Shown here piece by piece: positions 587 to 24,106 of a DNA stretch of 24,106 bases. Below the pieces are notes generated by a model that saw nothing but the letters and a program-made list of their open reading frames with translations, made no database searches and was not told where the DNA came from. The DNA is taken from NCBI GenBank assembly GCA_010093995.1, contig ML992502.1, positions 2,083,925 to 2,108,030 on the forward strand, written 5' to 3'. The first letter of the stretch is position 1. Every line of letters begins with the position of its first letter. The DNA comes from Elsinoe ampelina. Lineage: Eukaryota. The translations under genes and the position numbers were made by a program.

Positions 587-1013
587 GCTGGTGGTTGTGG
601 AGTCATGCAAATCTCCTACCAGGATGTGTGAAAGATAGAAGTGCTGTGTTTACCAAAAGTGAGGTGCTTTGCGAATCGGCCATGTCGCGACGCGACTGAA
701 TCAGGCATCAATTGCGTCCATGTCACGCCGATCACGTGCATGAAGCGCGAGAGCCGGGGTCGGCGGTAACGACAGCCGCGCTGGAAAGACGTCGTGTTGC
801 AAGGGCGACTTCGAGGTTCTCACCGAATACGGCTTAGTCCAGTCGTGAACTGCTTCCGTGTTTTCTAGCAAATTAGTTGTGCCTCATTGCTGGCTGTGAT
901 ATGTTCAGTTGAGTGAGAGCTAGGGAAACCAAACATCATTGAGACTTTCTTGCTGTAGCGTAGCATGAGTGAGATGGGCTTGATTGCTTTTGATTGTTGT
1001 AGAATGTAAAGCG

Positions 1014-1896: not shown

Positions 1897-3095
1897 GGTG
1901 CGGGATCCAAGGGCACGATTGACCAAGGATAGTCGTCGACTGATTGTTTGAGAAGCTATGTTGGGCGAAGTAGCGACTGCTTGGAGGAGAAATGCTTGGT
2001 AGGAATGGGCACAGCTGTCCTACCTGAAGTCAGAGTGTATTGTCAGGGGAATTGCAGGTGAAGATGGATGTGTACCACTTTCAACATGACGGCATAGCTG
2101 CGACACTAGGAAAGCGAATCTCGGTGCAGCCGATCTCAGATCTGATGCGGCTCTGCTCTGCGAGAGGCTCGAGCTTCTCTCAAAGACGCATGTGGCTGCG
2201 TGGCAGTCTGGCTGCATGACATCTGCGGAAGAGGCGTGCGGAGACACGAACTGCATCCTTCTTCCATCAACCATGGCTACGCTCCAATCGTCAGCAGCGT
2301 GCTCTGAGGTGCCGTGTGGCGGTCAGACAATCGCCAACCATGCCGCTCTGGAGTTTGCCGGATGTGCAACCCCGCATTGACATGAGGCATCCTTGCGATA
2401 AGTACTTCATTGGAGGTTTCTATCAGGCTCCGGAGGAACACGCGGTCACTCCGGATGGCCGCATTGGAAGCGAGCACAGGACGATAGATCCATTACAGAA
2501 GCCTCGAGCAAGCAATCGTTTGTGTACCATTGGACTTATCAGAACGCTACATGCCCTTCGGTCTGCCAGCCTGATCACAGATTTGACAGTAGAGCTCGAC
2601 ACTTCACTGCTGCTTCATACGACGACGATAGCTCGATATGATGTGCGCTGTCAGACACGGCCATCTCTCGGCCTGAACAGGGCTGCGTGATATCACGTCC
2701 AAGCTCGCCATGAAATTAGTTCAGGTCGCTTAGCCTCAATTCGCGCCAATCAAAGAAAAGCTCATTTGCGGCAAAGCCAGCATCCTCTCTCTTCCGTCCA
2801 CGCCATCAACGCAAGCGGCATTTTGACAGCTCGCCATGCAGTAAACTAGCTCCAAACCTGCAGCTGTCAAACATGCTATGCCGAGATCAGTCAAGACTGC
2901 CATTCTTCTCTGACCTGCTAAATTGCATACTTTTGTCTCATCACGGCTGATCTGCTTCTGTATGGAAGGCCAGGGAGAATTCTTCCTGCAGATCGGGATT
3001 CGTAGGCTTGACTCGTCTCAAAAAGGTCTGACCGCCCTTGCGAACTCGATAGGTCTCTTCGTTTAATTTACACTACTGGGATCATCAACGCCGCC

Positions 3096-3998
3096 ATGCC
3101 TGGATTCAACGAAGAGCCATTAAGTCATGAAGAGTCCATGCAACTCGTACACTCGAAAATTGATGAGTGGACCAGATCACTGGAGAGGATCAACAGCACA
3201 GTGCAGCGATGGCGGGAATACCTCTCAAAACATCAAGAAAGTGAAGCACGTGACCAAGCCCCTCGCCTGACACGAACTCGGTCAGACTCATTGCAGTCTA
3301 TCAATGAAGAGAAGCACCACTTTACAAAGTCTACACAGATTCGATTCGAAGATACCCGATCAAGACGGCAGCCGAGTCCGACCAGCAGAACTCGTGAAGT
3401 GAAGCAAGTGGTCTTTTTCGATTCAACTTCTCAGAAGCAATTCGAGGAACTGGTCAAGAATGTTCAGTACGTGAGAAGCCGAGTACTCAGAACAATCGCC
3501 GTCAGCGAGCTCGCCGCCACGTCGCAATCAGTGAATGCAAAGCGCAGCGTTTCGAAGACTCTATCCCTCAGGACCGGTGGCACCACATCCAGGCCTGAAA
3601 CGGTCAAGGAGGAAATCAATCCGCTGGACAAGGATGTACGGCGACTCGAGTACTTGCTCAAACAGAGCATGGACCAGTGCGAAGAAGCAGCATATCAGCT
3701 TCTGCGGAAAGGAATTTGTGACGTCCAATTTCAGAATATCAGGAGACGGCTGAAAGAATGTTCGGAAATTGTAAGGAGTCACGTGGTAGCACTCACGCCA
3801 CCCCGGGCATTGTCAACTCGATCTGGCACTAGTCCGTCCCGGCCACCTACACAAAATGCAGCCACATCCGCTATAGAAGTACTCGAGGTCGACGATGAGG
3901 ACGATGACAGTGGCGATGAAGGTGAATTGGATGCTAAGCTCGACGCTCTGAGGCTCAAGTCGAAACAGATGGCGTCGAGGGTGCCCACGTCAGGATAG
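3096..3998 (+). CDS. Hypothetical protein, 300 aa, helical/coiled-coil, uncharacterised
   Basis: Intronless ORF with a good start context (GCCGCCATG). The blocks VFFDSTSQKQFEELVKNV and LKQSMDQCEEAAYQLLRKGIC resemble conserved uncharacterised ascomycete proteins. Acidic patch near the C-terminus. Confidence 0.75.
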   Translation: MPGFNEEPLSHEESMQLVHSKIDEWTRSLERINSTVQRWREYLSKHQESEARDQAPRLTRTRSDSLQSINEEKHHFTKSTQIRFEDTRSRRQPSPTSRTREVKQVVFFDSTSQKQFEELVKNVQYVRSRVLRTIAVSELAATSQSVNAKRSVSKTLSLRTGGTTSRPETVKEEINPLDKDVRRLEYLLKQSMDQCEEAAYQLLRKGICDVQFQNIRRRLKECSEIVRSHVVALTPPRALSTRSGTSPSRPPTQNAATSAIEVLEVDDEDDDSGDEGELDAKLDALRLKSKQMASRVPTSG

Positions 3999-4031
3999 TC
4001 AACGTCGTAATCTATACATGCTGTGAGGTAT

Positions 4032-4832
4032 CTACTTCGTCCTGACCTGCTTGAGCTTTCCCGGGCTGTGCACAAATTGAGTCGCGTATGCCTTGGGAAT
4101 GATCCTCCTCTCGTTTGGCTCCTGAACGAAGTACTCGTATCCTTGCTTCTGCGCAAATCTGATCGCATCGTCCTTGGAAGCAAAGCTGAGATGTGTGCCC
4201 TGCATGAAGTCTGCCGATGATTGCCAGCCCATCAAGGGGTTCTCCCATCTGTGTCCCTTTGATAGAATGTCCCAGTCCATACGCCATTGGTGGCCGTGCC
4301 AGTCCCCAGATTGCGTCGCGGTCTTAGCAGGACGGAAAATGCTATGATCAATATCAGCTACTGAGCTCGGTGAGGTTGGGAGGGGAAACAGACCGGACTG
4401 TGCGAGCTTGAAGGTCGGTTGGTGCTCCAGACAGCACAGCGGCTGGTACGTTATCGCCTGGCTCGCTGCCATCCATCACACGCATCGGTACTGGCGAGAA
4501 AGCACTATTATCGTTAGTCCCACCTCAAACGATGTCCGCTCTTCCACTGACGATGTTCGATAGTCGACTGCCACATTATAGTCTGGCGAATGCTTGGCCG
4601 CGCCCTCAGCTGGCCCCTCTTGCCTGATCAGAGCAGCCGATCCGGGCTTGTATCCAGGAGGCTCGGATGTCGAGGCGTGAGGTCGGTCTCGTTGCCCTCC
4701 TTGAGATGCGGGCGGGTTGTGTGCTTGGGTCTCCCATCTTACGGCGATGGAGCTGGTGTTGGCATTTGTACCTAGACGCAGTCGCGACGGCAGCGACAGT
4801 AAGCCCGATCGCAGAGGTCGAATGGCCGCCAT
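4032..4832 (-). CDS. NDUFS4: NADH:ubiquinone oxidoreductase accessory subunit NDUFS4 (21 kDa / AQDQ family), ~233 aa; exons 4832-4552, 4504-4394, 4341-4032
   Basis: Arg/Leu/Ser-rich mitochondrial presequence. The spliced product contains VLSGAPTDLQARTVRIFRPAKTATQSG and RWENPLMGWQSSADFMQGTHLSFASKDDAIRFAQKQGYEY. Introns 4551-4505 and 4393-4342 have GT..CTAAC/CTGAT..AG signals; total 702 nt in frame. Confidence 0.95.
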
Positions 4833-5002
4833 CTCGAATCTGGAGAGTGTGTGCAGTGCAGCTCAGTGGTAGTGAACATGGCAATCGAAGTTCGAGATCT
4901 TGGCTTCCACGTGATCTGCACAGACCAACGCCCTAATCAACCTCATCACTTCTTCAAGTCTCATAGGCACAGGAAACACTACGACCAAGCTCACACATCA
5001 CC
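4833..5002. promoter_or_regulatory. 170-bp divergent promoter shared by NDUFS4 and ATP17, containing CACGTGA (bHLH/Cbf1-type E-box) at 4908-4914
   Basis: The start codons at 4832 (-) and 5003 (+) face away from each other, and the E-box is near the middle. Confidence 0.55.
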
Positions 5003-5569
5003 ATGGTGTCAACACTCATCCCTCCAAAGGTATGTTTCTATTCAATTGACACCCACGCGACACCAGCTGACCCAATTCAGATCGCCTCGCCCAGCGTACG
5101 TACATCTCGAAATCTTCAACTCCCGAACCTCCCCGAATAGCCGTAGCATTGCGACATGACCACCCAAAGCATCCACACGAGACCACAATATGGAATTTGA
5201 GCTCTGACATGGATATTACAGGGCATCGGCGCCGCTAAGGACACCGCGCGCATGCAGCGGATAGTGTCTTTCTATGAGAGACTTCCCCGTGGACCCGCTC
5301 CAGAGGCTAAGCCACGAGGACTGCTCGAGAGATACCAGAACCGATACATGGGCAAGAAGCCATCTGGCATGCGTGCGTAGACAGACATGTATCAGAGATT
5401 GGAGTATTACTGACGCCGACACAGCCCTCGTTCACCTGATCGGCGGTCTGCTTGTCCTCGGCTATGCCCAGCAGTACTACTTCCACTTGAGTATGCGCCA
5501 GAGTTTCCCACAAACTTCCGAACGTGGCTCTGACATGATACAGGGCACCACAAGAACAACGCGCACTAG
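5003..5569 (+). CDS. ATP17: Mitochondrial ATP synthase subunit f, 94 aa; exons 5003-5029, 5081-5095, 5222-5372, 5425-5490, 5544-5569
   Basis: Spliced translation MVSTLIPPKIASPSGIGAAKDTARMQRIVSFYERLPRGPAPEAKPRGLLERYQNRYMGKKPSGMPLVHLIGGLLVLGYAQQYYFHLRHHKNNAH*. Four canonical introns, including a 15-nt micro-exon. Confidence 0.95.
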
Positions 5570-6347
5570 ATGGATGCATGGGGAGTGTTTTGACAGGAGG
5601 CAAACATGTATAGGATCGAGAAAGACTCTCGGCACATGCCTGAGACCGATAGACAGTTCTCAAATGCAGCAGCTTGTTCTTAATCAACCAATGTGGCTTC
5701 TCTAATCCTATGCACTTGTTGTTTTCTTACAAGACTTGAGGTGGAATGAATCATGTGGACGTCGATTTATGATCATGGTCATGGTATCACAATCACGAGC
5801 CTACTTCGTACTACCTACTTGTAACATATAGTCCATGTAGCGAATGACTGTTTCGGCAGCCCTAAATACGTTCCTTGTATTGCCGCGCCTGATGCGACAA
5901 AGCTGTGATGACAGGATTCAGGCGTGGCCCGTGCACCTTCAAAGCTTGGCCGGCTGTCATTCAGCAACGTCCTCCCTACCACAGCGACGGCCTTTGTCCT
6001 TGAGTCACACCTCACACTGATCAACCTCACCGAAGGGATCACATATCTCGCAACTCACGAAAGCTACAAGCAAATTAGCGACAAGGCCGAAGAGCCTCAA
6101 ACCCTTCTAGCAGGCAAAGCGATCAGCCTGCGCAACCAGGTCCTAGACCAACCCTGAAGGCGCGATTCCATCACGCTGGATCATTCAACGGGATAAGAGA
6201 AGGTGTGTACAATCTTGACAGCTCGGACGAGACATCTTCAAATCTCAATTCCAAGTCTTTGCGCGACTGGACATCTTGCACGGCTTTCCACCTCAGCCAG
6301 GGCTTTCAGCTGAACTTTACTGACAGCCACCTATAGTCAAACCTGTT

Positions 6348-9300
6348 ATGGCCTCTTCAGACACCCAAAATGTGGTGGTAAACTCCCAGTCGGTGGACGC
6401 TTCGTCCATCGACGCGCATGACAAGACATCCAATACTGCTTCCGCCGTCAACGGCACCTCCGAAATCTCCGCGCCCGCCGTACAAGAGCCCCCGAACACT
6501 GATACCGCCGATCTGAATGCGAACTCGACACTTGCAAATGGGAAGCTCTCCAATCCTTCACAGTCCTCGGACTTATTAGACGCACACGTAAATGGGAATG
6601 GGCAGCATGCAGATCATCTGAGCGTTGCGGACACAGCTTCGGTACAGGGGTCGGTGCCTGATTTTGACTCAAGAGATGCTGGGAGTGTCGGAGATGCGGC
6701 GATATCAGATACGGACAGTCGTGGTGACGCGGGCGAGCAGGGAAAGGATACGAATGGAAACATCAAATCTGGAGCTGTGAAGAAGCCGACTACGTTCAAA
6801 GCCGTCTCGGTGACCAAGAACTTCCTCGCCAAGACAGCGACCTCGACGCCTTCGGTCAAGGTGGGAGAGAAGCGTAAGGAGATATTCGGTCTAAGAGGGG
6901 CGGACACGAACTAACAATCATAGTCACGGCACCCGCAGTGAGCTCACCGCAGACTATGGCAAGACCTCGTCTGGTCGCAAAATCGGGCAGCGGTCTCCGA
7001 GATAGCCCTCGACCACGACCAGGGGCAGAAGGACCTTCAGAGGGAAACACGGTGTGGAATAAGAACCGACGTACGACTCGCTCTGGGCTTTGCGTTTTTG
7101 GCTACTAACACATCTCAGCCGCACCACCACCCCCTCCGAAGCAATTCACGGACGAAGAACTCAAGCAGCAATACGGGATTCATCTTGCATCACGCATACA
7201 AGCCGATGATGAAGGCTCTAAACAATCCAAGTGGGCTGACATGGAAGATGAAGAGGATGACTGGGCGCCAGAGACGATCGAATGGATGGACGGGACAAAG
7301 TCAAAGACGAATCCTGAGCCGGTACAAGCATCAAAGCCAGCAGAAGAGCCTCGACCTCTCGAAACGAAGACTAATATGACTCCGCTGAAACGACCAACGC
7401 CGACTGGACCCCCAAAGACCATTCTGCGACCCGGAGCTGCTCAACTAAGCAAGCAAGATGCATTGGGCGGAAAGGATACGCCAGAGCAGAGGGCTACCTT
7501 AGGTTCAAAGGCTTCTGCTGCTCCGCCTGTGAAATCACCATGGGCGACATTACCGCCAGTCGACAAATCGGTTCCGATGTTTCAACCACCACCTCCACCA
7601 GCACCAGCCTCGAAACCAGCTTTTGGCTCACAGGATGCTAGATTCATGGATGATGCGTCATCAGCAATACGCCATGAAATTGAGGCGGATACCTTCGACC
7701 GTTCCTGGCGGGATTCCAGCGGCCCACGAGAACTTTTCAACTCGCAATCAGGTCGCTATGAGCCAGCTCCTGAAGGTGGACGACGTGGATCTATGCGACA
7801 CGATCAAGGATATCGCCAACCAGCAGTCTTGCAACGACCTTCAGAAGAGGACGCTTCATCGCAGCCAAGGTCACAAGCGGAGGGCAGTCCTTGGAGCCGC
7901 CGACGGTCTAGTGTCAGTCATTCAGTGCAGAGTTTCGAGAGGCGGGTGTCGATTCCACCAAGCACGGATGCAGTCACACCATCGGAGAATCGCACTGGTA
8001 TTGTCATCGGCCATGACATTGGACCGCAGGGCAGGAAGTCTTCAGATGCAGCACAGAAACTTCAACAGCAGATCAACGATCGCAATGAGGAATTGGCAAA
8101 GCAGAAGAAGATCATGCAAGAGAAGCGGGAAGCGGCAATTCGTCGCCGGCGTGAGGAAGAAGAACGTGAGGAGGCCGAGCGTCGTGAGCGCATCCGCATC
8201 AAGCTCGAATCTCTCGGCATGTCGTTGCCTGACAAGAAGGAGTCAGAGGTGAAGGCCGAAAATGCGGAATCCCCGCAACAACAGGTTTCAACACCAGCCC
8301 CCTCACAAGCTATTTCGTCACCCGCACCTCCTGGTCTATTGTCACAACAATCGGAACAAAAGAACCATGAGCGACCTCACACCAGCCCTCTAAAGGCACA
8401 GCCACTTGAGAATGTGCGCTCGGACCCCGGCACTCAACATATACCTCCCCCTCAACAACCTCCTTTTGCAAACCAGGCAGTCCGTCCGACAGCGAATTTA
8501 CCGAGCAGGAATTTCCAAGACACTTCTGTCCCGGTCTCTTCGTACTCTTCTCCTGGCGAACAGAAAGCTCAACCAGGTTCTTTCAAATCACCAGCTCTCG
8601 TCGCAGATTCGTTTGCTACGTGGGGTACTCGCACTACCTCGGGTCACGCCTCGCCTGCATCCAACGTTTGGGGACCTCCGGGCGCAACAAGAGGCATTGG
8701 TAACGGCGCTTTTGACTCGAGCTTCTCCAGAATCCCACCACGTTTGCAAAATCAAAACATCATGGGTCAAGCATTTGGTCCGCAGAATAACCGCAGCCCG
8801 TCAGCCGGCAACCGCCAGCAGGAAACTTCACCAATGCGTCATCAGCAGATGCTGTCAGACCAAAATCTAGCTGCGCTTGGCCTGGTCGACACCCCGACTG
8901 ACAGCTTCCCATCAGCACCTTCTGCCGGGCCATCACCTATGCCTGCGCAAGCTCAGCCCGTCGCACTACCTCCGATCGGACCGCCTCCACACCGCCAAGT
9001 CAGCCAGCCATTCCAGCAGCAAGTTCCACCGCGCGGACCTGCATCTTGGGGTCATTACGCAGCTACGGCAGGCACTGAGCACCGTCCAGGCTACCCGCAG
9101 GCTCCCCAGCCTACCCACACCGGACCTGGACAACAGTGGAAGGAAACCTTCAAGCAGACCAAGGTCAGCAGCTGGACCGGAGCAACTCGCAATGTTGTGG
9201 TTGCCGAACCGGTTATCCACGCACAAACACAGGCTGGCCGGTCCGCACCGAGTCCAGCACCACCAGTTTCGCAAACTCAGCAACCAGCTGGCGCACAGGT

Positions 9301-10992: not shown

Positions 10993-12612
10993 ATGGCATA
11001 TAACGGGCGCATGAGCATGGCGCGCAGCTCACAGCAGTCCTCGCAGGGACGGAAGAAGGAAGATGACAGCGACGCTTTCATGACATTGGTACGTTGATTC
11101 CGCCGTCGCATGGTTTGACCTCGCCATTGGAATTCGTTGCGGTCGCATGTGCAAATGCCTCATATCTCCCGCACCCAGCGCAAGCATTCTCTACTACTGA
11201 TCCACTCCATGATTCTGCCAGGTATACTGACATCGCCAGCCTGATCGCGAAATTGCTGGCTGCATATCCGACATTGGCATTCCCTTCAGTGTCTCAGACC
11301 TCCAGAAACCAAATCCGCAACAGATCCAAAAGGTCTTTGAATGGTTCGCCGAACTCCTCCTCAACACGACGCGAGAAGTCGTTGCGCCAGGCATGTCCGC
11401 CGCAGCCTTTGCCATTTCCGGCGACGACGCAGACAGGATCTTCACGGCCGATACAAGAGAGCTGATGGGATTCTTCGTGATGCTGAGGAGACTGTTGGCC
11501 GAGTGTGGTGTCAAGGACTTTACATTCAGCGACCTCTACAAGCCAACGCATCCTCGCCTGGTACGAGTTTTTAGCTACATCATCAACTTCATTCGCTTCC
11601 GGGAATCCCAAACCCCAGTCATCGATCGCCACTTCAACAGCCTCGACGAGACCAAGCGCCGCATCGAATCTCTCTGGTCCGAAAACGAATCCCGCCGCGA
11701 CACGCTCGAAGACATGGAACGCAACAAAGACCGCCTATCCGAAGCCATGCGCGAGAAGGAGCGTCGCAGCCAGGACCTCAAAACCCGCCTCCTCGAACTC
11801 AAAAAAGGCCAAGAACGCGTCGCCGAAAAGCTCGAACGCGCCCGCGCCGAGCAATCCCGCCTCAAACTGGTCCTCGAAGAGCGCAACACCGACCGCATGA
11901 CCATCCGCAAAGAAGTCGAAAAGCTCCGGCCCTACGCCAGCCAATCCCCCGGCCAACTCGAACACCAACTCCGCGAGCTAGGCGACCAACTCGGCCGCGA
12001 GCGCGGCGAGATCGAACGCCTCGAGCGCCGCGACCGCGCCCTGAAAACCAGCCTCGACACGTTCGTCCTCGTCCACGCCGACGTGACGAGCCTCACGCGC
12101 CTGGCGACCGACGTCGCGGAGGAGTTGCGCAAAGAAGAAGAGGAGCTGTCGCGGGCGAACCGGGCGAGGGACGCGTTGAGCGAGCGGAGCAACAACGTGC
12201 GGGACGTGGAGCGGCAGGAGAGGTTCCTGGGGAAGCAGTTGCAGAGTTGGAACGAGCGGACGGAGAAGTTGAGGCGGACGGCCGAGGAGAAGCAGGAGGT
12301 GGCGAGGGTGAGGGTGGAGGAGTTGAGGGGGGTGCATGAGGGGTTGGGGAGGGAGAGGAGGGTGAGGGGGGAGGAGGTGGAGAGGAGGAGGGTGAGGATT
12401 GAGATGGTGGAGAAGAAGGTACGTCTTTGTTTCTTTGTCACTTTGGTGAACGGGGTTGGGGAGATGAGACATGGGATCGTGCTGACTTGTTGCAGATGGC
12501 GGATTTGAAGGATAATATCGAGAATGAGGTCCAGAGTGCGAGGGAGGAGTACATGAAGATGGAGAGCCATATTAAGCTTTATATCACGGAAATGGAGCAG
12601 AGTCTTGTTTGA
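10993..12612 (+). CDS. NUF2: Kinetochore protein Nuf2 (Ndc80 complex), ~463 aa; exons 10993-11088, 11240-12418, 12496-12612
   Basis: CH-domain motifs [29 protein letters not shown] and [34 protein letters not shown], then a long coiled coil ending [17 protein letters not shown]. Introns 11089-11239 and 12419-12495 are canonical. Confidence 0.95.
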
Positions 12613-12689: not shown

Positions 12690-13478
12690 CTATGATTCAA
12701 CGAATTCGCACCATTTTCCGGCTACCTCTCGGATACTGACTGTTCGTCCTTGCCAGCCTATTTCTCTGCTCGCGGCACCTTTGGCTTTGACGTTGGTGAT
12801 GGGGATTTGTTCGTCCCATGGCGATGGCGTTGCTTGTCGGTTGGTAGCGTCCTCGGCTTCGGCGAAGAGGTCGCCAACGTAGAGCGCTCGAGGGGTTTGT
12901 GGGACGCGGCACTCGGCGATGATCAGTCTTGCTCCAAGGTCATGCGCTGTTGAGACTGCGGCTGCGAAGAACCTGGTGAGTCCTTGTGCGGAGTAGGATC
13001 GGGTGCCGTCGTGTTGCGTGATTGGGTTTAGTACTGCGAGAAGGGGTGGGCCTGGGGAGTCGACGTTGCTGGTGGAGGAGGAGTCGCGCTTCAGTGGTAG
13101 TGAGGCGAGATATGCCAACGTGTGAGGTGTGCTTGGGCAGAAAGCGACCTTGAGTTTGCTGGCGGCGAAGAGCATATACAGAGTTGGTTGTAGGAGAGGG
13201 TGCTCTGCCAGTCTGCTTCTGTCTGCCTCGTCTTCGTCGAAATCTGGGTCGTTCATTTCGATGTCGATAGGCTGGTCTGCAGTGCCATGCTGCTTCGACA
13301 GCTTGTTGTCCGTCACGATGGCGTTGTACAGGAAGTGCATGAAGTCGTCTTTGGAGCTGCAGACGACCAGAGTCGACGACGATGTAGCATGTTTCACTAG
13401 GCTTTCCAGGACTCTGATCAAGGACGCGTCATCGAGTACTACGGACGCCGTGGTGTTCCAAAGTGACGTGCTAGCCAT
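12690..13478 (-). CDS. Conserved fungal hypothetical protein, 262 aa (alpha/beta pattern)
   Basis: Intronless ORF with motifs TLVVCSSKDDF, HPLLQPTL, KVAFCPSTPHTLAYL, SAQGLTRFFAAAV, WDEQIPI and WQGRTVSIREVAGKWCEF, typical of an uncharacterised Pezizomycotina family. Confidence 0.8.
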   Translation of the reverse strand: MASTSLWNTTASVVLDDASLIRVLESLVKHATSSSTLVVCSSKDDFMHFLYNAIVTDNKLSKQHGTADQPIDIEMNDPDFDEDEADRSRLAEHPLLQPTLYMLFAASKLKVAFCPSTPHTLAYLASLPLKRDSSSTSNVDSPGPPLLAVLNPITQHDGTRSYSAQGLTRFFAAAVSTAHDLGARLIIAECRVPQTPRALYVGDLFAEAEDATNRQATPSPWDEQIPITNVKAKGAASREIGWQGRTVSIREVAGKWCEFVES

Positions 13479-13656
13479 TGACGCATGTGGGAAATGTCCG
13501 AGTGAGCTGCTCCGACATTGTGCATCAAGATGGACTACTACCGAGCTGGGATAGCTACAGTATTTTGTTCAATAGCTTTCGTATGGTACCTTGCTTTCCG
13601 TATCGTGCAAAAGAGGACATGACATGAGTGTATGATCGATGTAATGGAGGGGATGA

Positions 13657-13798
13657 TGTTGTAATGGAAGGCTGGTACAGCTTCTCTGGTACTGAAGAAC
13701 TGGCACTGATGAGTCAGCGCACGTACAGTAGATAAATCGGTTACTGTAACTCTCTGAATGAAACACACGTCTCTTGATCCGATTTGCTAGTTATAACA
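13657..13798 (+). repeat. 5' LTR (142 bp) of a Ty1/Copia retrotransposon
   Basis: Begins TGTTGTAA and ends TTATAACA (TTACAACA with one RIP C>T), i.e. short inverted termini TG...CA. It is immediately followed by a copia-type PBS. Confidence 0.75.
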
Positions 13799-13810
13799 GG
13801 TTATAAGCCC
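13799..13810 (+). other. Copia-type primer binding site GGTTATAAGCCC (RIP form of GGTTATGAGCCC)
   Basis: Directly abuts the LTR CA end and matches the GGTTATG(G/A)GCCC PBS used by copia-like elements primed with an initiator tRNA-Met fragment. Confidence 0.75.
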
Positions 13811-14201
13811 GGCGCTTCTATAAAAGCACTTAAAGCTGTAGCAAATTAAGCGTGTTATTATTAAAAGGATTACTAAGCTGCCTATACTAAATTCTAGACT
13901 AGCTATATTAAGACAAACACTTGTAGTAGCCTGTATTAACCCTTTAATCTAATAGCTTAAACGGCTTAAACAAGCTAATTACATTAATTAAATTAATAAG
14001 CCTTTAGCTAATTACTATTATTATATCTAGATTAGCAAAAATGCTTAAGACTTAGATTCTTAAGAGAGAAAGTAACTATAATACTTAGAGATTAACTCTT
14101 AAGGTAGCTCTCCTTAAAAAGGATATACTTAGATATACAATTTATAGCATCGACTAGATACTAGTAGTTATAAAGCCTAAAGAACTAGCTCTAGATACTA
14201 G

Positions 14202-14218
14202 TAGAGTAGTTTTTAGGT
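14202..14218 (+). repeat. Left terminal inverted repeat of the hAT element
   Basis: TAGAGTAGTTTTTAGGT, preceded by the TSD GATACTAG. Confidence 0.9.
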
Positions 14219-14578
14219 TAGGTTAGGTACTAGAATTACTACCTATAACCTAACCTATAGCGATACTAGTACTTAAAGCTTGGTAACTGTAACTCTCTAA
14301 GCCTTAGGTAGTGTTACTTAGCCTTAGGTATATAGTTAGTTATAGTGTTACTTATAACACTACCTAATAGTACCTATAGGTACCTAAGAGTTAAGGAGTA
14401 GATATATATCTTAAGAACTTAAGATTTAGGAATTAAAATTTAAAAGTTAAAGGTTATAATTACATTTATTAATTACGCTAATCTTGCTAGTACCTCCTAT
14501 CTACTCTTATAGCCTACGCCTTACTTACTTATCTACCTTTATAGAATAATTGTCCTTACTATAAACTATCTAATTGTC

Positions 14579-15113
14579 CTAGTTATATATATTAAACTTT
14601 GTATAATAGCGACAAGTAAGCTATAAATCTTTCTAGTTAATAGTAACTTACTTAGCATAAATACAATTAAGGTTCATATCTAAGAATATTAGTATCTATA
14701 ATAGCATTAAATTTAAATAATAGATACCTTCTATATACCTAATAATAAATGCTTCTATTGCTTCCTAAAGTGCTTTAAGAGCTTTAGATTAGATATAAAA
14801 GCTTTTACCTTAATAAACATAGTCTTTAATAATCTTATAGACAAGGTAGCTAAAGAGAAGCTTATAGTAGAGAAGTTTAATTAACTTCTAGTAGCAATAA
14901 ATCTCTCGGAGAGCAATAGCTATATAGTATTAGTAATGTAACATAATAATTAATTGTAATAATTATACTACTAGCCTTAAACTTGTTCTTCTTTCTAGAA
15001 GCAATAGTTATCTTATAAAGTTACTTAGTAGTAGAAGCCTTAGGTCTACTAGACAACTTACTCTTATAACTATAACTATAGGTTAGTACTATAGTACCTC
15101 TCTTAGGAGGTAT
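14579..15113 (-). pseudogene. RIP-mutated histone H3-like gene inside the hAT; exons 15113-14969, 14919-14728, 14679-~14579 (~145 aa)
   Basis: Literal translation: ...RKKNKFKAST IALREIYCY*KLIKLLYYKLLFSYLVYKI...FYI*SKALKAL*EAIEAFIIRYIED MNLNCIYAK*VTIN*KDL*LTCR. Using only C>T/G>A reversions this becomes KFKAGTVALREIRRYQKS.ELL.RKLPFSRLVREI...RIQSEALEALQEATEAF.VG..ED.NLNCIHAKRVTINQKDSQLARR. Two 48-49 nt introns have TACTAAT branch sites. Confidence 0.9.
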
Positions 15114-15751
15114 AGTTACTATTACTACTAAGGATAGAGTCTTAGGAGGTACTTATAATATAAAGTAATCTTATAGTAGTAAGGGTAAGGTAGTAGAGGG
15201 TATAGAAAGTAACGAGGTAGATATAGTAGTAGTATAAAGAAAGATAAGTAGAAAGAGAAGAGGTAAAAGGGATAGAAGAAGAGAAATACGTAATAAGAAG
15301 AGAAATGTATAATAATTTAGTAGCTAGTAATAGCATAGCTAACAATAGGAATATAATATTATAATAGAAATATAAAATTAGTAAATTAGAAATATATAGT
15401 ATATAGAATACTTGCTTATTATAATATTATTTATAATAGTAAAGTATATAATATTAGATTTATTTAAACGCTTAGAAGAAGAGGAATCTAGACATTATAG
15501 AGTACTAATAATAAGTATATAATAATCTAGCGTAATAATACAATACTAATTTAGTATACTATAATTCTTAAAAACCTTACATTTTATATTTTATATTCTA
15601 CCCTAGCTACCTTATTGTTACTTTATACATAGTAGAAGGCTATATTACTCTTCTCTATTCTTCTTCTTCTTCTATTAACTTCCTTTTTTCTTGTCTCTAT
15701 TGCCTTTTTGTTTCTACGCTCTTAAGTTTAACTTTTATATCTTATTTTACT

Positions 15752-17095
15752 ATAGTAACCTCTCTAGATACTTCTATAGCTAATATACCTTCTAATACTT
15801 CTCCTAGTAGCTTTCCTAAGATTAAGAATAAGTTTAATAAGTTTAAAACTATAATAGAGATAATTATTATAGTGTTTTATTACGAGTATTAAGCTAATAG
15901 GTATAGGGCTTTAGGTCTAAGTAGGCTAAAATCAAATACTAGATCCTTTAGTATAGTTAAGGTAGCAAGGCATATCGTAGTTGTCTAACTAGTTTTAAAG
16001 CAGGTTTAAGTAAGCCTTTAAAGTAGAATATTTAGAATATTATACGCTAAGATAAAGATGCTTAATAGTTAGCTAAGGTTAAGGCACTTAAAGTAGCTAG
16101 AGATACTAATTGTAGTATAAAGAGGAATTTGCTTAAGAAGTTTAATATAAATACTTAAGTCTAGAACCTTAGTAAAGAAGCAAAGGTAGAACTCCTTATA
16201 GAAAAGATTAAGGAAATAGAGTAGCGCCGTTTCGACGCCTAGTAAAGCTATATAATTATACTACTATATTATCACATTTAACACTAATAGATTATAGATA
16301 AATAGCTATCTAGCAAGTTTAGAAAAGTCTATGTTAAATAGTAGCGCATTAGAAAATTTGCTATATGTTAAGAGTATATAAAAGTCCTTATAAAGGCAAA
16401 GGTAGCTTATACTACTAAGTCTAGCAAGGAGAATAACATGTTAAGAGTAGCTAAGTAGATATATAGTTCTAGCGGAATTCTCGAGAAGCTTAAGTATAAG
16501 ATCTATATAGCTAGCGCTACTAAGCTTACTATTAATAAAGGTACTAATAAGAATACTAAGAAGAAGTACTTAAAGTTTGTCTAGAAACTTAGTAAGGAGG
16601 GTAGGCTTACTACTATCTCCGATCCTAACTAGTAGTAAGTTCCCTATTATTATTATATATTATTATTACGTTAGTATACTAATAAATAGCAGAGCTTATA
16701 ATTCTATACCTCCGGCTAAGTATTAACTACTCGAGCTAATCTATCTTATAGATAAAGGTAAATATATAAAGCCTAATAACAATAACAAGTGTAAAGAAGT
16801 ATATAAGCTAGACTATAACTCTAAGATTAAGAAACTAGCTAATAAGTATAAGACAGACAAGTAGTATATAGAGTTTAAGAGGTTTTCCTCTAATAAGGAT
16901 AAGATTATTAATAAGAGAGAGAGGGTTAAAGTAGAAAGTTCTTTAGAGGGTAGAGATAAGGAGAAGAATAATAATAAGAATAATAATAAGAATAATAATA
17001 AGGATAATAATAAGGATAATAATAAGAATAATAATAAGGAAAGGGATAAGGAAATAGTCGATGCTAAGGAAGATAAATTTACTAGCTTTAACTAG
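15752..17095 (+). pseudogene. RIP-mutated cargo gene for a ~409 aa acidic protein with a long D/E C-terminal tail; probable exons 15752-16009, 16069-16634, 16690-17095
   Basis: One frame is maintained across introns GTAAGC..TAG (16010-16068) and GTAAGT..TACTAAT..TAG (16635-16689). All internal stops are TAA/TAG. The tail (aag aat/gat aat aat)n de-RIPs to EDDD repeats and ends EEMVDAEEDEFTGFD*. Confidence 0.65.
16960..17040 (+). repeat. 12-bp tandem repeat AAG(A/G)ATAATAAT, about 6 copies; RIP-altered GAG GAT GAT GAT acidic coding tract
   Basis: Directly visible, and in frame with the acidic cargo gene. Confidence 0.8.
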
Positions 17096-17199
17096 TAGAT
17101 TTTCTATACTATAATCAACTACTAAGTAGTTTAATCTATAGTATAGTCCGGCCCTTTTATAGATTTAAGTTTTATAATAAGATCTTTTCCTATATAGCT

Positions 17200-17869
17200 A
17201 CTATTATTATTTATGCTTCTAATTGTTACCTCTAATAATAGTAAATTATCTATATTATTACTTCTAACAATAGATTTCTATTACTATTGTTACTATAAAC
17301 AATAGGAGGTACTAGATATATATACTATCTCGTTCCTATTTATTCTTTTTTCTAAAACCTCTCTTTCTTATTATTATAGCTTCTCATGTATAACTCTATT
17401 CTAACTTAGAAGATCTAATCCTCTATTAGCCTTATACTATAACTTATAGTAACTACGCTAGGCTACTACACTTACGTTAGTATAAAGCTTATATCTACTA
17501 TATAACTAAGTAATTTATTAATAGTAAGGAAAGGTAGACTACTTATATCTATAATAACAATAGAGGCTTCGAACTTTGCTATAAGGCCTATTACTCTTAT
17601 AATACCCCTTATAACTTTATTAGTATTCCTAATCTAATACTACTATATTCTCTAATAAGTATTAGTACGACAGCTTCTAGACTAATAATATTTTTAACCT
17701 TATCGACATATAGCGTACACTTAATCGTTACTATCTTAATCTTATCCGGGATTAGATTACAATCTTTAATATACGCTATAGCGTTAAACGCTAGTAGGAC
17801 AAGCTAGATAATTCTAAATCCTAAGGATCTTAATAGTTCTAATTCTTCTAGTAACTAGTTTAGTAGTAT
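17200..17869 (-). pseudogene. Probable third RIP-mutated cargo gene of unknown function (3' end uncertain)
   Basis: The minus-strand frame from ATA(ATG) at 17869 de-RIPs to MPPNQLPEELEPLRSLGFRIIQLVPPAFDAVAYIEDCNLIPDEI.... Two candidate introns (GT..TACTAAT..TAG and GTAAGT..GCTAAT..TAG) preserve the frame. Confidence 0.45.
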
Positions 17870-18369
17870 AATATAAATAAAGCATTAGCGGGCTAATAGC
17901 TTTAGTAGGTTTTTTATAATATAGATATGCCTTTAATTTTAAAAATTTTCTACTCTACCCTAATATAGACATGCCTTTAATTTTAATTATGTTACCTATT
18001 CCTTAGCCCCTATATAATATAAGTCTAGCCTATAGAAATTAATATACCTCTTACTTTAAAGTTTCTATAGTATAGTATAGGATTTATTATTACATATTAT
18101 AAACACGTTAATAAATATTCTATAATAAGTTATCTACCTTTATTAAATAATATAATCTATACTAATTAACATATCTAGAGCTTCTAACTCTAAGTTAGTA
18201 CTTAACCTATAACTTAGAGATACTATATATTTCTCTCTAGCTATTCTAGCAGAATTACGTAGCTTTATAATCTCCGCTTAGAATGTTAGACGCAATAGTA
18301 GAATACAACAATTATAACTCCTTAAATGCCTGCCTTTTTAATCTAGTAAGAGATTTAAGAATTAACCTC

Positions 18370-20800
18370 TATAATAAGCCTAGAAAGACTAGTAGAGTCG
18401 AATAATTATAGTATCTATATATAAAGAAGGCACGAAAATTGTACTAAATTAGAATTCTAAAGCACGTTCTAGAGGTCTATAGGCAAATATCATAGAAGCT
18501 ACTAAGATTTATAATAGAGAACTATAAGTTATTTATAATAGGTATAGTAATATACTTACTTATTCTACTTACTGTTATACTAGTAATAAAGCAATAGAGA
18601 GACATCTTAAGTCTTAGAAATACACTATAGTTGTTAAGTACTGCTATAAGTAAAGCTCTACCTAAAAAGCCCTTAAGCAATTATAATAGTATATAAAGAG
18701 TATTTACTAAATTATCTCTCTATTCTCTACTAATATCTTCTACTATAAGCTTATTCGTATAGTTACTAACTATAACTAGTCTTTCCGCATAGTTAAGCGT
18801 TCTACCTTTAGCTAATTCCTCTACTTCCTTCGACCTAATATTACTATACCTAGCTAGACTCTTTTTTAAGTAACACTAGTAGTATAATTTAAAAGGTTAT
18901 AAAAATTACTACTCTCTAACCTCGGTAAGAACACTAAGCTTTTAATAGCGTTAGATAGATAGTCTACTAATAACTACTTAGGGTTTATTATAATTAAAGG
19001 CTATTTTATTAATAACTAATAGCAATTACAAGAGTAGCTCCTAGAAATAACACCCCTTTAAGGTTGCTACACTAGTAAAGCTATAGCAAATAAGGTAATA
19101 TAGGTACTAAAAGATGTATCGGTTAAGTAATAACTACTTATAGTTATAGCAGATAATATATTAAATAATAAAACACTCCGAGAGTCTCTCGAAAGAAGCC
19201 TAGGTACACTAGATATTAAGTAGAATATAAAGGAGAATATAATTCTATACCTAGTATATATTATTAATCTTGTTATATAGGACATTATTAAGCATCTAAA
19301 ACTTAAGACAAGCAAAGAGATTAACATAGTAGAGAGGTTATAAAACTACTATATCTAGAATATTATAATATTAGTCTCTGTTCCGAATTTACTATAGAAG
19401 GTATATAACATTTATTACATTGTTTTATTACGTCCTAATATTAGTAAGCTCTATGTAATATATATTATAATTAATAGTTCCCTATAATAGTTTAAACAAT
19501 TTATAGACCTCTAGAAGCATCTACTACCTAAGAAGAGGTACTAAGTTATATATAATGTTAAGACACGCTAGAATTTAACATATAATATATATAAGCAAGT
19601 ATTAAAGCTTAAACCTTTTATTAAGAATTAGCTCGAGAATAAGACTATACTCTAAGTACTAAGAACTTCTTCTAAGGTATTAATATCTAAACTGCTCTCT
19701 AACATTAACAACTATAACTTTACTAAGTTATTACTTAATCCGAATAAGTAGTAGTATCTTAAATCTATTATAGTAATACTAGAGAACTTTAAGAAAGTAA
19801 TAACATAGCTAAGTACTAGTAGCTAACCTCTTCTCTAGCATATATAGACGATGTATAATGTACTCTTTAACTTCTTAGATAAAATTAAAAAAGGCCTAAT
19901 TAGCACTAAGAATTATAACAATCTACCTATATAGCTAGCTACTATATAAAAGGTAGTAGTAAAAGGACAAGAGAAGCTTAAGAAATACTATATATAAACT
20001 AAGGATAGGAAGGACATACTCTATAACTATATAACAATTCTTAACCTCTCTAAGAAGCTTATAGTATATAATATAAGCGCCTATAGTCTTTCTAGTAAGT
20101 AGTAGCTAATAACACTTAGGATATAGAGACTTAGAAACCTTACTATAAAGACAACTATTATAAGAAGTTCTTATAGTACCTTTGTTAGTATAATAAGATA
20201 GACCCCTTAATTGCTTTACTAGCCTCTACCTCTAAGCTATTACGTCACTAGTAACGAGACTAGTTTAACTAACCGAAACGAAAGAAGTAAGATTATACCC
20301 TATTACTATAAAGCGATAGTCTATACTTCTTATTTATTCCCTCGAAGCGTACTATAGTTAAAGAAGGTAAGGACTACCTTACGACACTACTAGTCTATAT
20401 TTAGAAACTCGATGTCTTATAGTAGTAGAAAGAGAAGAAGGAAGAATATCTATTACTATTACGTATAGCAAAAGATATTCTAGTAATTCTAATTATAGGG
20501 GTTAGAGTCGAGTAAGTGTTTAACATTATAAAGAATATTATTAGTGCGCGGAGGCATAAATTAGTAGCCTAAACTATTTAGTAGCTTATAATGTTAAAGT
20601 ATAAGCTTAAAGCAGCTTTACTATTAGGACAAATTAATATAGAACTAGAGATAGAGGATAAGGCTACTAATACTAATAATTTGCTTAAATTGTTATTAAG
20701 GACTAATATAAATTAACTAGACAATATTACTATAGTACTAAGCTATAGTAATAATAACTACTCTAAATTAGAGAGAGAAAGAGTATAGGGAAGTTAATAG
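18370..20800 (+). pseudogene. hAT transposase, RIP-mutated (boundaries approximate)
   Basis: De-RIP motifs: BED-like MERHLKSQKH (~18595), first catalytic D SIALDGWST (~18943), GHFIDNQWQL, second D TADNA (~19146), PCLAHIINL (CxxH, ~19245), DVKTRWNST (~19555), and the hATC dimerisation domain DVLQWWKEKKEEYPLLSRMAKDILAIPIAGVGVERVFN (20411-20524). Confidence 0.92.
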
Positions 20801-21283
20801 TATTCTAGTAGAAAGCGTTAGCAGATTTACTAGCTAGATTATATTTGTACTTCTAGTATAATTTGTATATTTTGCTTACTACCTCCCCTTACGTAATAAA
20901 GTAGCGTAATAAAGTTAGGCCTAAAAATTTGTAAGGTATAGTAACGCGCTAAGCTATAGAGTAAGNNNNNNNNNNATAAGGCTACTAATACTAATAATTT
21001 GCTTAAATTGTTATTAAGGACTAATATAAATTAACTAGACAATATTACTATAGTACTAAGCTATAGTAATAATAACTACTCTAAATTAGAGAGAGAAAGA
21101 GTATAGGGAAGTTAATAGTATTCTAGTAGAAAGCGTTAGCAGATTTACTAGCTAGATTATATTTGTACTTCTAGTATAATTTGTATATTTTGCTTACTAC
21201 CTCCCCTTACGTAATAAAGTAGCGTAATAAAGTTAGGCCTAAAAATTTGTAAGGTATAGTAACGCGCTAAGCTATAGAGTAAG
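20658..21283. other. Assembly gap (10 N at 20966-20975) flanked by an identical 308-bp direct duplication (20658-20965 = 20976-21283)
   Basis: The two copies read identically and meet exactly at the N run, as expected for unmerged overlapping contig ends. Confidence 0.85.
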
Positions 21284-21464
21284 TGCTTTAACTACTAACC
21301 TATTAGGTACTATTAGGCAGGTACTAGGTTAGGTACCCCCCCCCCTAAGGGCGACACTACAACTATATACTAACCCTACCTACCTTAGTATAGTACCTAA
21401 CCTAGAGCAACCTCTCTCTACTAAGCTTTTATACCTAACCCCTACCTAATATAGTGCTATATCT

Positions 21465-21481
21465 ACCTAAAAACCACTCTA
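21465..21481 (-). repeat. Right terminal inverted repeat of the hAT element
   Basis: Reverse complement is TAGAGTGGTTTTTAGGT, followed by the TSD GATACTAG. Confidence 0.9.
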
Positions 21482-21489
21482 GATACTAG

Positions 21490-24106
21490 TAAAGGCACTA
21501 AGGTAATCTATAAGGTTAGGAATAAGACCTAGTATAAGAATAATAGAATTACTTATAGTATTATTATAATAAGGATTTATAAATCTATTAGACCTTACTA
21601 TAGTATAACTTAGAAGACTTTAAAGGAACTTCTAGACACTATTAAAGCCACATTTAAACCTATTATTTTATATAAGCTATATATAGCTATCTATAACCTT
21701 AACAAGGTAATTATAACAAGTTATAACACCTAAAGGTACTATAAAGATTTTATAAAGTACTATTATTAATACACTATTACTATAGAGCAAAGAGCAAGCA
21801 CTATTAGTACTAAACTAGATAAGTTTAGGCTCCCTCTATACTATATTAAGACTATATTTATTATAGGAATAGAGACTACTAAATAGTTAAGGAGCTAGAG
21901 ATCTAGCCTTAACTATAAGAAGAGTCTTAAAGAAATAATAAGCTCTCTTAGAATATAGAAGCCCCTATATAATAGAAGAACTAATCTAAACCCTATTTAT
22001 AGAGTAGCTAGTTATATTAAGAATTAATACACTTAGTATACTTATTATATCTACTCTAATATAGATTACTTTAAGTAGTACTCTAAGAAAGCACTAAAGA
22101 GTTAAAGTAAAAGAGATAACAAAGACAAGTTAAATAATAAAGGTATAAAGGCTAAAGGTAAAGGTAACAAGTTAAAGACTAAGAAAGTTAGAGGTTAAGT
22201 AGCTATTAAAGAATCTAGAGAACCTACTAAGGTAGGTAAATTAGATAAATACTCTAACACTAATATTAATATTATTATACTAGTCTATAGAGTAGTAGTA
22301 GTATCTACATTATTATCCTTAACCTATAGTAAGAATAGAGCAATCTATAACTCTAGTATATTAAGGTACTTTATTAAAGACAAGTTATAGTTCTTAATAA
22401 TTAAGGTATATAAAGGTATTCTTAAGTTTAAATAAGCTATTAGTATAAAGAAGCTACTTAATATAGAAGTTAGTATAGTTAGGCTTACTCTAACTAATAG
22501 TAAAGGCAAGAAGTTAATTATTAAGCTTTATAATTATATATACTTACTATTATTACTAAACACCCTTATATCTAATCTTTAGAACAAAGAGGAACTTAGT
22601 ATCTCTATAGCTAGCAAATCCTTAATAAAGGATAGAAAGGAAGTTAGCCTTATTAAACACTTTAAAAGAGTTAAATAGCTTAAGAACTTTAAAGTCTATA
22701 AGCCTTAGAACTATAAGGAATTACCTATAAGGCTAAAACTATAGAAGCTATAGGCTATAAGAGCAAATCTAGCTATTATAACTACTTAAAAGCTAACATT
22801 AGAAAGATAGTACTAGAGGTTAGGCTATATTAGTAATACTATTCTCTCCCTTACTAAAAGTTAAGCTATTAGATTAGAAGAACTTTAAATATTAGATCTT
22901 AGCTACTATAAACTATATACTATATTAAAGGCATAGAGAGTAGTATTAAGAGAACTAAGAGATATACTAAAGTACTTACTAGATAAGCTCTATCTAGACC
23001 TTGTTAGTCCTATTAAACTATAGTTAAGTAAGGGCTATAAATACCTTCTCTTTATAACATATAGTAAAAGCAAGTACAAGTTTATTACTATTCTCTTTCT
23101 TAAGAGTAATACACTAGTAGTAATTAAACTTATCTATACAAGGAATAAAATAGCCTATAATAAGCTTTTATTTATCTTTATCTCTAATAGAGGAGGTAAA
23201 TTTAAGAACTATAAACTAGTAATAGCTATTTATCTTAAAGGGTAGAGATAGAATATCTCTATACCTAATACTTAATACTAAGATAGTAAATCTAAGGCTA
23301 CTAATAAAGTAGTTATTCTTAGGATAAGGTATATCTTTGTTAATTATAGAGCACCCCTTAAACTCTAGTATATAGTTATAGAGTTTATAATCTATATTAG
23401 TAATAGAATTACCTATACTAAAACTAAGAAGATTCCTATATAAGAGCTAAGAAAGGATCTTCTTAATAATAATAGGCTAGTCTTATTAACTTACATTAGA
23501 CGCTTTAGCTATAGAGCCTATATCTATAACTAACATGTTTCTAAATTATATAAATTCTAAGCTAGAGCACTACTTAGTTAGTATATTAGTATATAAAATA
23601 ACTTAACGACTAATTACCTTATCTAGATACTCTATTAGTATTATACTTAGTAAGCCTAGAAGGAAAAGATTATTATATTACTCTATGTAATATTTAATAA
23701 GAATATAATCTATAAAGACTAGGTAATATAAGTTATTAAATAGCTATATATCTTATAGGTATAATAACCTAAGGCTTTATAGCTTTAGGGGGAGTAGACA
23801 TTTAGTAGTAATTATAATTAAGGCTATAGCTATAATTAACTACCCTTTAGTTATAAGAATCTATAAACTACTTAGGCTAAACAACCTTAAGTTAAATAAC
23901 TAACATCTAACTACCCTTTAATCCCTAGATATAAATAACAATTATCTACCCCTATTAAAGAATAGAAGGAGTAATACTAACATCCTAAACTAGATCCTTA
24001 ACCTGTTAATAAACAGGGGGAGTAACTTAATATTACTAATTATAAAGGTAAAGACCTTATAACACTACTACCTAAAGTTATTAGTAAACTATATTTAACC
24101 TTTAAT
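21490..24106 (+). pseudogene. Copia gag-pol (gag C-terminal part, protease, GAG-pre-integrase, integrase), RIP-mutated
   Basis: Motifs as listed for the element. The stops at motif positions are TAA/TAG, replacing CAA/CAG/TGG/CGA codons. Confidence 0.85.

Follow-up and report, generated by a model that had tools for sequence, protein, structure and literature searches.

The closest known counterparts of the locus described here are hAT transposons of two fungal groups that carry genes resembling histone H3. In the parts of their paper considered here, Dhillon et al. 2019 (PMC6710886) reported H3-like copies disabled through repeat-induced point mutation (RIP) within hAT elements that lie in AT-rich blocks of six Mycosphaerellaceae, namely Pseudocercospora fijiensis, P. 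musae, P. eumusae, Cercospora zeae-maydis, Sphaerulina musiva and S. populicola. The P. fijiensis genome was found to contain 784 such copies within 471 hAT elements, and every copy in the six species was described as RIP-inactivated. Full-length elements measure 9.5-9.9 kb with terminal inverted repeats (TIRs) of 20 bp and a target-site duplication (TSD) of 8 bp, and each carries a single H3-like copy or a pair of them, the difference between the copies being 'an insertion of 16 AAs'. These authors concluded that a spliced transcript or retrocopy of an ordinary H3 had been captured, and the same parts of the paper make no mention of CenH3, centromeres, Cse4 or variants. Manning et al. 2013 (PMC3538342), again in the parts considered, described, in Pyrenophora tritici-repentis, hAT elements with lengths of 5.6 and 2.3 kb that carry a gene termed H3L, which is intact and transcribed according to expressed sequence tags (ESTs), fits neither H3 nor CenH3, and has introns shown by ESTs (legend of Fig. 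5). According to the considered parts of PMC6710886, the Mycosphaerellaceae and Pyrenophora element families have no sequence similarity to each other. A search for later literature on hAT-carried H3-like cargo, within the collection of papers covered, found nothing beyond these two. Here we analyze an H3-like gene inside a hAT element of Elsinoe ampelina, in a window of 24,106 nucleotides (contig ML992502.1 of assembly GCA_010093995.1, positions 2,083,925 to 2,108,030); all coordinates below are counted from the first base of this window.

The element in the window resembles those of the Mycosphaerellaceae, as PMC6710886 presents them in the parts considered, in its AT-rich block, its strong CpA-to-TpA RIP, its 20-nt TIRs, its 8-bp TSD and its high copy number, as well as in having only stops of the RIP type and a 16-residue block. 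With an H3-like copy inside hAT TIRs, a position in an AT-rich block, inactivation by RIP and multiple copies, it has the features of a hAT-H3 transduplicon; the form known from P. fijiensis (~9.5 kb, DUF659 and up to two H3-like copies) was not found. The first-pass annotation of this DNA had pointed to the hAT-linked H3-like genes of Pyrenophora and held the concept to be not entirely new; it overlooked the closest published case, PMC6710886. The Pyrenophora element is like the present one in its TIRs, its transposase with a dimerisation domain, its further central region and its H3-like gene. In contrast, the Pyrenophora elements are described as nearly identical to each other, with little RIP and with an H3L that is intact and transcribed. 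The phenomenon is already published, and the present find is one more dead copy of a hAT element with an H3-like gene. Pack-MULEs and other transduplicating DNA transposons of plants take host gene DNA between their TIRs and amplify it. Pack-MULEs are Mutator rather than hAT elements, and here a whole small gene instead of fragments appears to have been taken up, followed by RIP.

What is new at this locus is a case, resting on a single RIP-mutated copy, for retained introns and for a donor of variant type. We consider it highly probable that the gene is a RIP-inactivated H3-like pseudogene, a passenger in a non-functional hAT transposon of ~6.95 kb that belongs to the class known from Dothideomycetes, and that it kept its introns and came from a variant-type donor.

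The first-pass annotation had placed an H3-like gene on the minus strand at 14579-15113, and a three-exon gene of the H3 family is indeed located there, its H3 core being readable in three frames of 14500-15200 despite many stops. Stops were translated as X in the profile, Pfam and PDB comparisons of this cargo gene. Exon 2 alone matched the Pfam family Histone (PF00125) with an E-value of 1.8e-05 and 25.4 bits, just below the cutoff of 26.4. When compared with PDB sequences, exon 2 gave 150 distinct matches at E<=0.01 over H3 residues ~47-104; all 60 of the matches listed among these 150 were histone H3 or H3/CENP-A chimeras, with 5zbx_A as the best (E 1.1e-06). Exon 3 matched PDB chains over H3 residues ~104-130 (best E 0.011), and the two exons meet exactly at E105|D106. 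Exons 1 and 2 are separated by a frame change. The end of exon 1, K-K-x-K-F-K-A-S, aligns with the KKPHRYKPG region of H3, and the profile alignment reaches ~12-15 residues into exon 1 over the splice, from cargo residue 34 or 37. The spliced cargo behaved as a single domain with 75.4 bits against a canonical H3 profile and 82.5 bits against a fungal CenH3 profile, at E-values of ~1e-24 to 1e-26 against H3 and CenH3 profiles. The histone fold with H3-specific sequence was found from alphaN to alpha3. A word-index search with the RIP-mutated exon gave no match, and a full HMMER search returned 16 matches, mostly concatenated H3 models. Neither a self-search nor H3 and CenH3 queries detected a second H3-like copy in the window. 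A weak match to an H3 tail at 58-240 was rejected, as it lies in an open reading frame rich in K and R that is not a histone.

The tail of the cargo was also read correctly as non-canonical in the first-pass annotation. It has no ARTKQTARKS start, and its first codons read I-P-P-K-R-G. Two copies of the 12-nt string tacctcctaaga, 39 nt apart, lie on the minus strand at 15141-15152 and 15102-15113, the second at the presumed start and the first just upstream; in the same frame they read V-P-P-K-T and I-P-P-K-R. The pair may represent a small duplication, which would leave the true start of the cargo uncertain.

The gene lies between the ends of a hAT element, as the first-pass annotation had proposed. 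The ends were obtained in a systematic search that paired all left ends in 14100-14400 with all right ends in 21300-24098. The best pair, 14202/21481, has TIRs with 16 exact and 19 transition-tolerant matches out of 20, and its TIRs and TSD combined give 24 exact matches, whereas the ten highest-ranking shuffles out of 100 had no more than 22. The consensus of hAT termini matches CAGAG; both TIRs begin here with TAGAG, which RIP would make from CAGAG. An end pair considered first, 14299/23777, which shares AAGCCTTAGGT and has a span of 9479, was rejected because it has no TSD; the AAGCCTTAGGT motif recurs at 15035, and transition-tolerant alignments of AT-rich ends reach 34-67 for unrelated pairs. 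The 13-mer inverted pairs 14304/14367 and 21303/21383 led to no ends.

An empty site was found in contigs of public runs, which were placed on 12800-20640 at a likeness of at least 85%. In DNA run X1, four contigs run along the window to 14203 and then diverge from it, and their consensus beyond this point equals 21492-21508 at 16 of 17 positions and is found nowhere else in the window. Other copies of the repeat that hosts the element are thus empty sites, and the hAT element is therefore a true insertion. The host repeat, consisting of 13801-14201 and 21482 onward, is itself RIP-mutated. Contigs from other copies of the host repeat cross the insertion site uninterrupted, and its copy number is above that of the hAT element (summed depth, which is not a copy number, of ~107,000 at 13848-14109).

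The span from 14202 to 21481 is 7280 bp, including a gap of 10 N. Since perfect identity is odd in RIP-mutated DNA, the two identical 300-nt copies around this gap are an assembly artefact, an unmerged contig overlap rather than a real tandem duplication, and the true length of the element is therefore ~6.95 kb. The H3-like gene sits 377 bp inside the left TIR and is oriented outward, diverging from the transposase. A six-frame Pfam scan of 13501-24106, with stops as X, returned two families only, Histone and the hAT C-terminal dimerisation domain (PF05699), the latter with 24.4 bits and E 2.6e-05 in one scan and 25.6 bits and E 1.1e-05 in another (cutoff 21.4). No Pfam or PDB match was obtained for the transposase outside this domain, and DUF659 was not detected with Pfam. 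An RNase-H-like catalytic core or a BED finger likewise gave no Pfam or PDB match; the segment ~18950-19600 may be catalytic-core-like, as judged by eye from motifs. The assignment to hAT follows from the 8-bp TSD, the short TIRs and the dimerisation domain. The center of the element also contains a tandem array of ~8 copies of a 12-nt unit (AATAATAATAAG-like) at approximately 16950-17057, which reads as N-N-N-K repeats in one plus frame.

The coordinates of the gene and of the element are collected in Table 1.

Table 1. Coordinates of the H3-like gene and of the hAT element around it
Feature	Position	Strand	Description
Left TSD, GATACTAG	14194-14201		8/8 identical to 21482-21489
Left TIR	14202-14221	plus	20 nt; begins TAGAG
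H3-like exon 3	14679-14579	minus	D106 to C-terminus; terminal TAG 14581-14579; 3 premature stops
Intron B (predicted)	14727-14680	minus	48 nt, gtatct...tactaat...ttcttag; phase 1 in D106 codon
H3-like exon 2	14919-14728	minus	T45 to E105: alphaN, alpha1, loop 1, alpha2; 4 premature stops
Intron A (predicted)	14968-14920	minus	49 nt, gtataa...tactaat...tatatag; phase 1 in T45 codon; shifts reading frame
H3-like exon 1	15113-14969	minus	non-canonical 48-residue tail; first codon ATA; 1 premature stop
Central part of element	15114-18899		no Pfam match at E<=0.1 in any of the six frames; with repeat families D2 and D3
RIP-degraded hAT transposase remnant	18900-20602	plus	C-terminal dimerisation domain 20372-20602
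Two 300-nt copies around 10-N gap	20658-21275		100% identical; start-to-start spacing 318; gap 20966-20975
Right TIR	21462-21481	minus	20 nt; begins TAGAG
Right TSD, GATACTAG	21482-21489		8/8 match to left TSD

The first-pass annotation called the gene complete. This holds for its structure, but the gene is not intact: it is dead, with an ATA start, 8 premature stops and strong RIP indices. The 8 stops are distributed over 145 cargo codons and are all TAA or TAG. Four of them stand at Q codons conserved in both the H3 and the CenH3 panel, one at R116 and another where CenH3 has Q but H3 has P; the other two fall in regions that could not be aligned. The ATA start is possibly an ATG changed by RIP (G-to-A). 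The ratio TpA/ApT is 1.81 in the element versus 0.50 in the flanking genes, and (CpA+TpG)/(ApC+GpT) is 0.26 versus 1.31. The thresholds commonly applied to RIP are ~0.89 for the first ratio and ~1.03 for the second. Both the cargo and the transposase are full of RIP transitions, and nothing in the present copy is functional.

The element is present at high copy number, and its copies bear the RIP signature. In run X1, 3025 contig pieces were placed, of which 871 have a likeness of at least 99%, 1161 of 95-99%, 843 of 90-95% and 150 of less than 90%. Their summed depth, not to be taken as a copy number, was 634-7650 in the bins from 14372 on versus 150.7 in the single-copy flank. Transitions account for 199 of the 200 places at which the run X1 copies differ, and only one 1-base deletion was listed for these contigs. 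No run recorded as RNA contained this stretch. In runs X3, X4 (guessed to be RNA) and X7, a simple repeat was the only part of the element covered, and these runs are uninformative on expression.

The two segments that separate the exons behave as retained introns, and splicing at them is predicted. Both are of the form GT...AG and split a codon after its first base, and each has a TACTAAT 8-9 nt before its 3' end (8 nt in intron B). This 7-mer occurs 28 times on both strands of the window; the placement of two of them by chance is unlikely, at a rough estimate of a few in 10,000. The fungal branch consensus is TACTAAC, and TACTAAT could have come from it by RIP, since its final T is followed by A. 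With both segments left in, the cargo scored 44.6 bits against the canonical H3 profile and 52.9 bits against the CenH3 profile, and removal of one segment gave 58.9-68.5 bits. Each of eight controls with the junctions shifted by 3 or 6 nt scored lower (68.1-73.0 and 74.2-80.1 bits against the two profiles, respectively) than the exact junctions, which gave the best profile score of the 12 variants compared. Removal of the segments restores both frame and colinearity with H3. No contig of DNA run X1 skips either segment. These junction controls and profile scores agree with the three exons and two intron-like interruptions of the first-pass annotation. Since intron B consists of 16 in-frame codons, it could have been published as a 16-residue insertion, and it appears to be the '16-aa insertion' of PMC6710886, being in the same place in the H3-like copy.

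Because two phase-1 intron-like segments were kept at T45 and D106, the cargo would have been acquired as intron-containing DNA or from an unspliced transcript, and the retained segments argue against the capture of a spliced H3 retrocopy. The cargo as read here, with introns kept and a variant-type donor, differs from the canonical H3 retrocopy of PMC6710886, as far as the considered parts of that paper describe it. The evidence favors the capture at the DNA level claimed in the first-pass annotation over the retrocopy conclusion.

The kind of H3 represented by the cargo was examined through its codon classes. RIP causes transitions only, so the purine/pyrimidine (RY) class of a codon survives it, and RY comparison provides a simple classifier for heavily RIP-mutated genes that needs no consensus. 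The panels for comparison consisted of 52-53 named CenH3 proteins from fungi and 11-15 proteins of canonical H3. Among six diagnostic features, five are of CenH3 type. At the VTIx?KD site, CenH3 has Q (52/52) and H3 has P (13/15), and the cargo has a TAG that can be reached from CAG (Q) but not from CCN (P). The PF?R site is S in the cargo, as in 40/52 CenH3, versus Q in 10/15 H3, and the EAxEA? site is F, as in 37/52 CenH3, versus Y in 12/15 H3. The spacing between LVREI and LQE is 20 in the cargo and in 36/52 CenH3, compared with 17 in 8/15 H3. A start of the type MPPK occurs in 17/52 CenH3 and 0/15 H3, and the cargo reads IPPK. The exception is the LV? site (H in 51/52 CenH3, G in 12/15 H3), where the R codon agg of the cargo fits G and not H. 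The core of the cargo aligns without gaps to fungal CenH3, while alignment to canonical H3 requires a gap of 3 residues, loop 1 of the cargo being three residues longer. By tblastn, two CenH3 queries gave 45.4 and 48.9 bits and two canonical queries 42.7 and 38.5 bits.

Of the 68 columns with the same consensus residue in H3 and CenH3, the cargo is RY-compatible in 57, which makes most of the de-RIPped residues of the first-pass annotation possible, although a single copy cannot verify residues. The RIP-invariant (RY-class) log-likelihood ratio of the cargo was +5.3 bits over 85 columns, which lies outside the range of held-out canonical H3 (-68.6 to -42.6, n=11). The ARTKQTARKS tail, the 13-residue loop-1 region and the P in VTIMPKD of canonical H3 are all absent from the cargo. 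It does have the longer loop 1 and a CENP-A-type alpha2 region of CenH3, and its codon at the Q of MQKD is compatible with Q, while its core overall lies outside the CenH3 range. We therefore place the cargo between the two groups, as a sequence that reads as neither canonical H3 nor orthodox CenH3. The same verdict was reached by Manning et al. on the Pyrenophora H3L, according to the considered parts of PMC3538342. We infer that the donor was probably not an ordinary H3 gene but a variant of H3 whose loop 1 resembled that of CenH3 and which had several residues of CenH3 type.

Several observations weigh against retained introns and a variant-type donor. In the parts considered, PMC6710886 finds no introns, on the basis of ten near-full-length de-RIPped copies from P. 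fijiensis. The present element is ~6.95 kb with one H3-like copy, whereas the published ones, as described there, are 9.5-9.9 kb with up to two; it has the dimerisation domain and no detectable DUF659, and the reverse is reported in those parts of PMC6710886. It may belong to another subfamily or species, and findings on it need not hold for the published elements. As to the introns, the 5' splice sites gtataa and gtatct agree weakly with the consensus common in fungi. Nine metagenomic CenH3 loci of fungi all lack introns at both cargo sites, and three of them have one at RLV|REV instead. The D106 site was interrupted in none of 80 fetched metagenome loci, a set biased toward uninterrupted matches. 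As to the donor, the columns in which the consensus sequences differ include 8 that fit only CenH3, 7 only H3, 4 both and 14 neither. The ratio of +5.3 is below that of all held-out CenH3 (31.8 to 90.4, n=53), and an earlier version with size-dependent pseudocounts gave -16.5. The H of LVH, present in 51/52 CenH3, cannot be reached from the cargo codon. Finally, the whole classification is derived from one RIP-mutated copy.

Three intact metagenomic H3 variants (P0016, P0022 and P0023), which are unspliced open reading frame calls found among 187 fetched proteins of at most 200 aa, bear on the origin of the cargo. They are interrupted at both cargo intron sites. At the first, junk turns to 'A-[V/L]-ALREI'; an Ala at this place is what results when a phase-1 intron that splits the T45 codon is read through. 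At the second, a block of 16-18 residues starting with G, as g|gt... reads, stands between FE and D.NL. The three proteins are like the cargo in their longer loop 1, with log-likelihood ratios of -1.4, -6.4 and -5.6 versus +5.3 for the cargo. Their RY-compatibility with the cargo, 60-69/87, does not clearly exceed the values for the H3 panel (64.2/85) or the CenH3 panel (62.8/88). A protein atlas search with P0016 returned generic histone clusters only. The cargo falls with this small set of intermediate H3 variants that share the two interruption sites. We suggest, tentatively, that it could be a genomic, intron-bearing copy from a distinct lineage of H3 variants whose loop 1 and alpha2 resemble those of CenH3, and of which intact members such as these three would survive, possibly as live transposon cargo in other fungi.

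It is unlikely that the cargo is a captured copy of the CenH3 gene proper (cse4, hH3v). Such an origin would agree with the five CenH3-type features, i.e., the loop 1 longer by three residues, the S in PFSR, the F in EAxEAF, the Q in MQKD and the MPPK-like start. It would also agree with the H3/CENP-A chimeras as best PDB matches of exon 2, with the CenH3 profile score 7.1 bits above the canonical one, and with the higher tblastn bits of the CenH3 queries. However, the cargo has no H in LVH, its tail is short, and the nine CenH3 loci have their introns, if any, in other positions than the cargo. A strict CenH3 origin was not upheld by the log-likelihood ratio, which is lower than that of all 53 held-out CenH3, or by the column counts. 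Among the nine metagenome loci, L002, L006 and L009 share their common intron between RLV and REV in alpha1, and L001, L003-L005, L007 and L008 have a histone fold without an intron. Among canonical genes, only one in the 80 fetched metagenome loci was split, at K14.

The published model taken over unchanged seems quite improbable for this locus. It would have the spliced mRNA (retrocopy) of an ordinary H3 captured, the 49- and 48-nt segments arise as later insertions and the CenH3-like residues arise by drift. The considered parts of PMC6710886 (Results, legends of Fig. 7 and 8) describe exon-exon junctions without introns in de-RIPped copies, and they call the 16-residue block a mutation that predates amplification. 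The cargo tail of ~48 residues is near that of canonical H3 (~44) and shorter than that of the one CenH3 checked (T61 in P0113), and the LV[R] is compatible with canonical G. On the other hand, the retrocopy model needs two independent phase-1 insertions, each with GT...AG, TACTAAT and a length typical of fungal introns, and with exactly colinear flanks. Interruptions at these two positions also occur in intact H3 variants, and transitions alone cannot turn codons for the canonical H3 residues into agc (S), ttt (F) or the TAG that comes from CAG. Loop 1 also differs in length from that of canonical H3.

The first-pass annotation suggested that a transposon-encoded H3 lacking the K9/K27 context could serve in anti-silencing or chromatin targeting; such a function for the element of an H3-like protein without K4/K9/K27 contexts, whether present or past, is very unlikely, for although H3-like genes are linked to hAT in two fungal orders and in dissimilar element families (PMC6710886, PMC3538342, in the parts considered), the Pyrenophora H3L is transcribed per ESTs and the cargo tail lacks the canonical N-terminus, the RIP-killed copy cannot make a protein and bears in no way on function, no experiment or selection test supports the idea, and the element family was silenced by RIP regardless, with all copies in six species inactivated.

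The surroundings of the element were also surveyed. Bases 1 to ~13,500 of the window have a G+C content of 50-61% and contain ordinary genes, and the G+C content falls to 25-31% from ~13,800 to the window end. The ordinary genes include a pyridoxamine-phosphate-oxidase-like gene at 1219-1926 and a gene for the kinetochore protein Nuf2 at 11393-12508 on the plus strand (Pfam Nuf2, E 4e-23; Nuf2_DHR10-like, E 4e-29). The latter is ~1.3 kb from the AT-rich block that contains the H3-variant relic, and this adjacency of a kinetochore gene is probably a coincidence. Between the genes and the AT-rich block, at 13657-13800, is a 144-bp unit of normal G+C content and very high copy number. The bin that includes it, 13586-13847, has a summed depth (not a copy number) of ~123,000 versus 150 in unique sequence, and the contigs of three other runs, including 'organism B', break exactly at 13657 and 13800. 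The ends of the unit are imperfect inverted repeats (TGTTGTAA... and ...TTATAACA), and it looks like a miniature inverted-repeat transposable element at the border of the genes and the AT-rich block.

We propose the following course of events for this locus. A hAT element would have taken up a small H3-variant gene, introns included, between its TIRs by transduplication, either from genomic DNA with the introns in place or by way of a transcript that had not been spliced. The composite element would then have multiplied, amplifying the cargo along with the transposon, and one copy would have inserted into another repeat within an AT-rich block of this filamentous fungus. RIP at meiosis would have mutated all copies, the present one included, and the remnant would now be inert DNA that enlarges the AT-rich block. 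An anti-silencing or targeting role is impossible for the present copy, and any such role of the ancestral intact element is hypothetical.

If the introns were kept and the donor was of variant type, the published account of the capture of a spliced housekeeping H3, with its RIP pressure on the 'original' gene, would need to be revisited. The recurrent association of hAT elements with non-canonical H3-like genes would then become a question of selection and not of accident. If the cargo derives from a variant lineage, the hAT elements of two orders of fungi would not have copied a housekeeping gene by accident but would have taken up a variant histone, and a chromatin role, in the element or at its insertion sites, would then merit testing.

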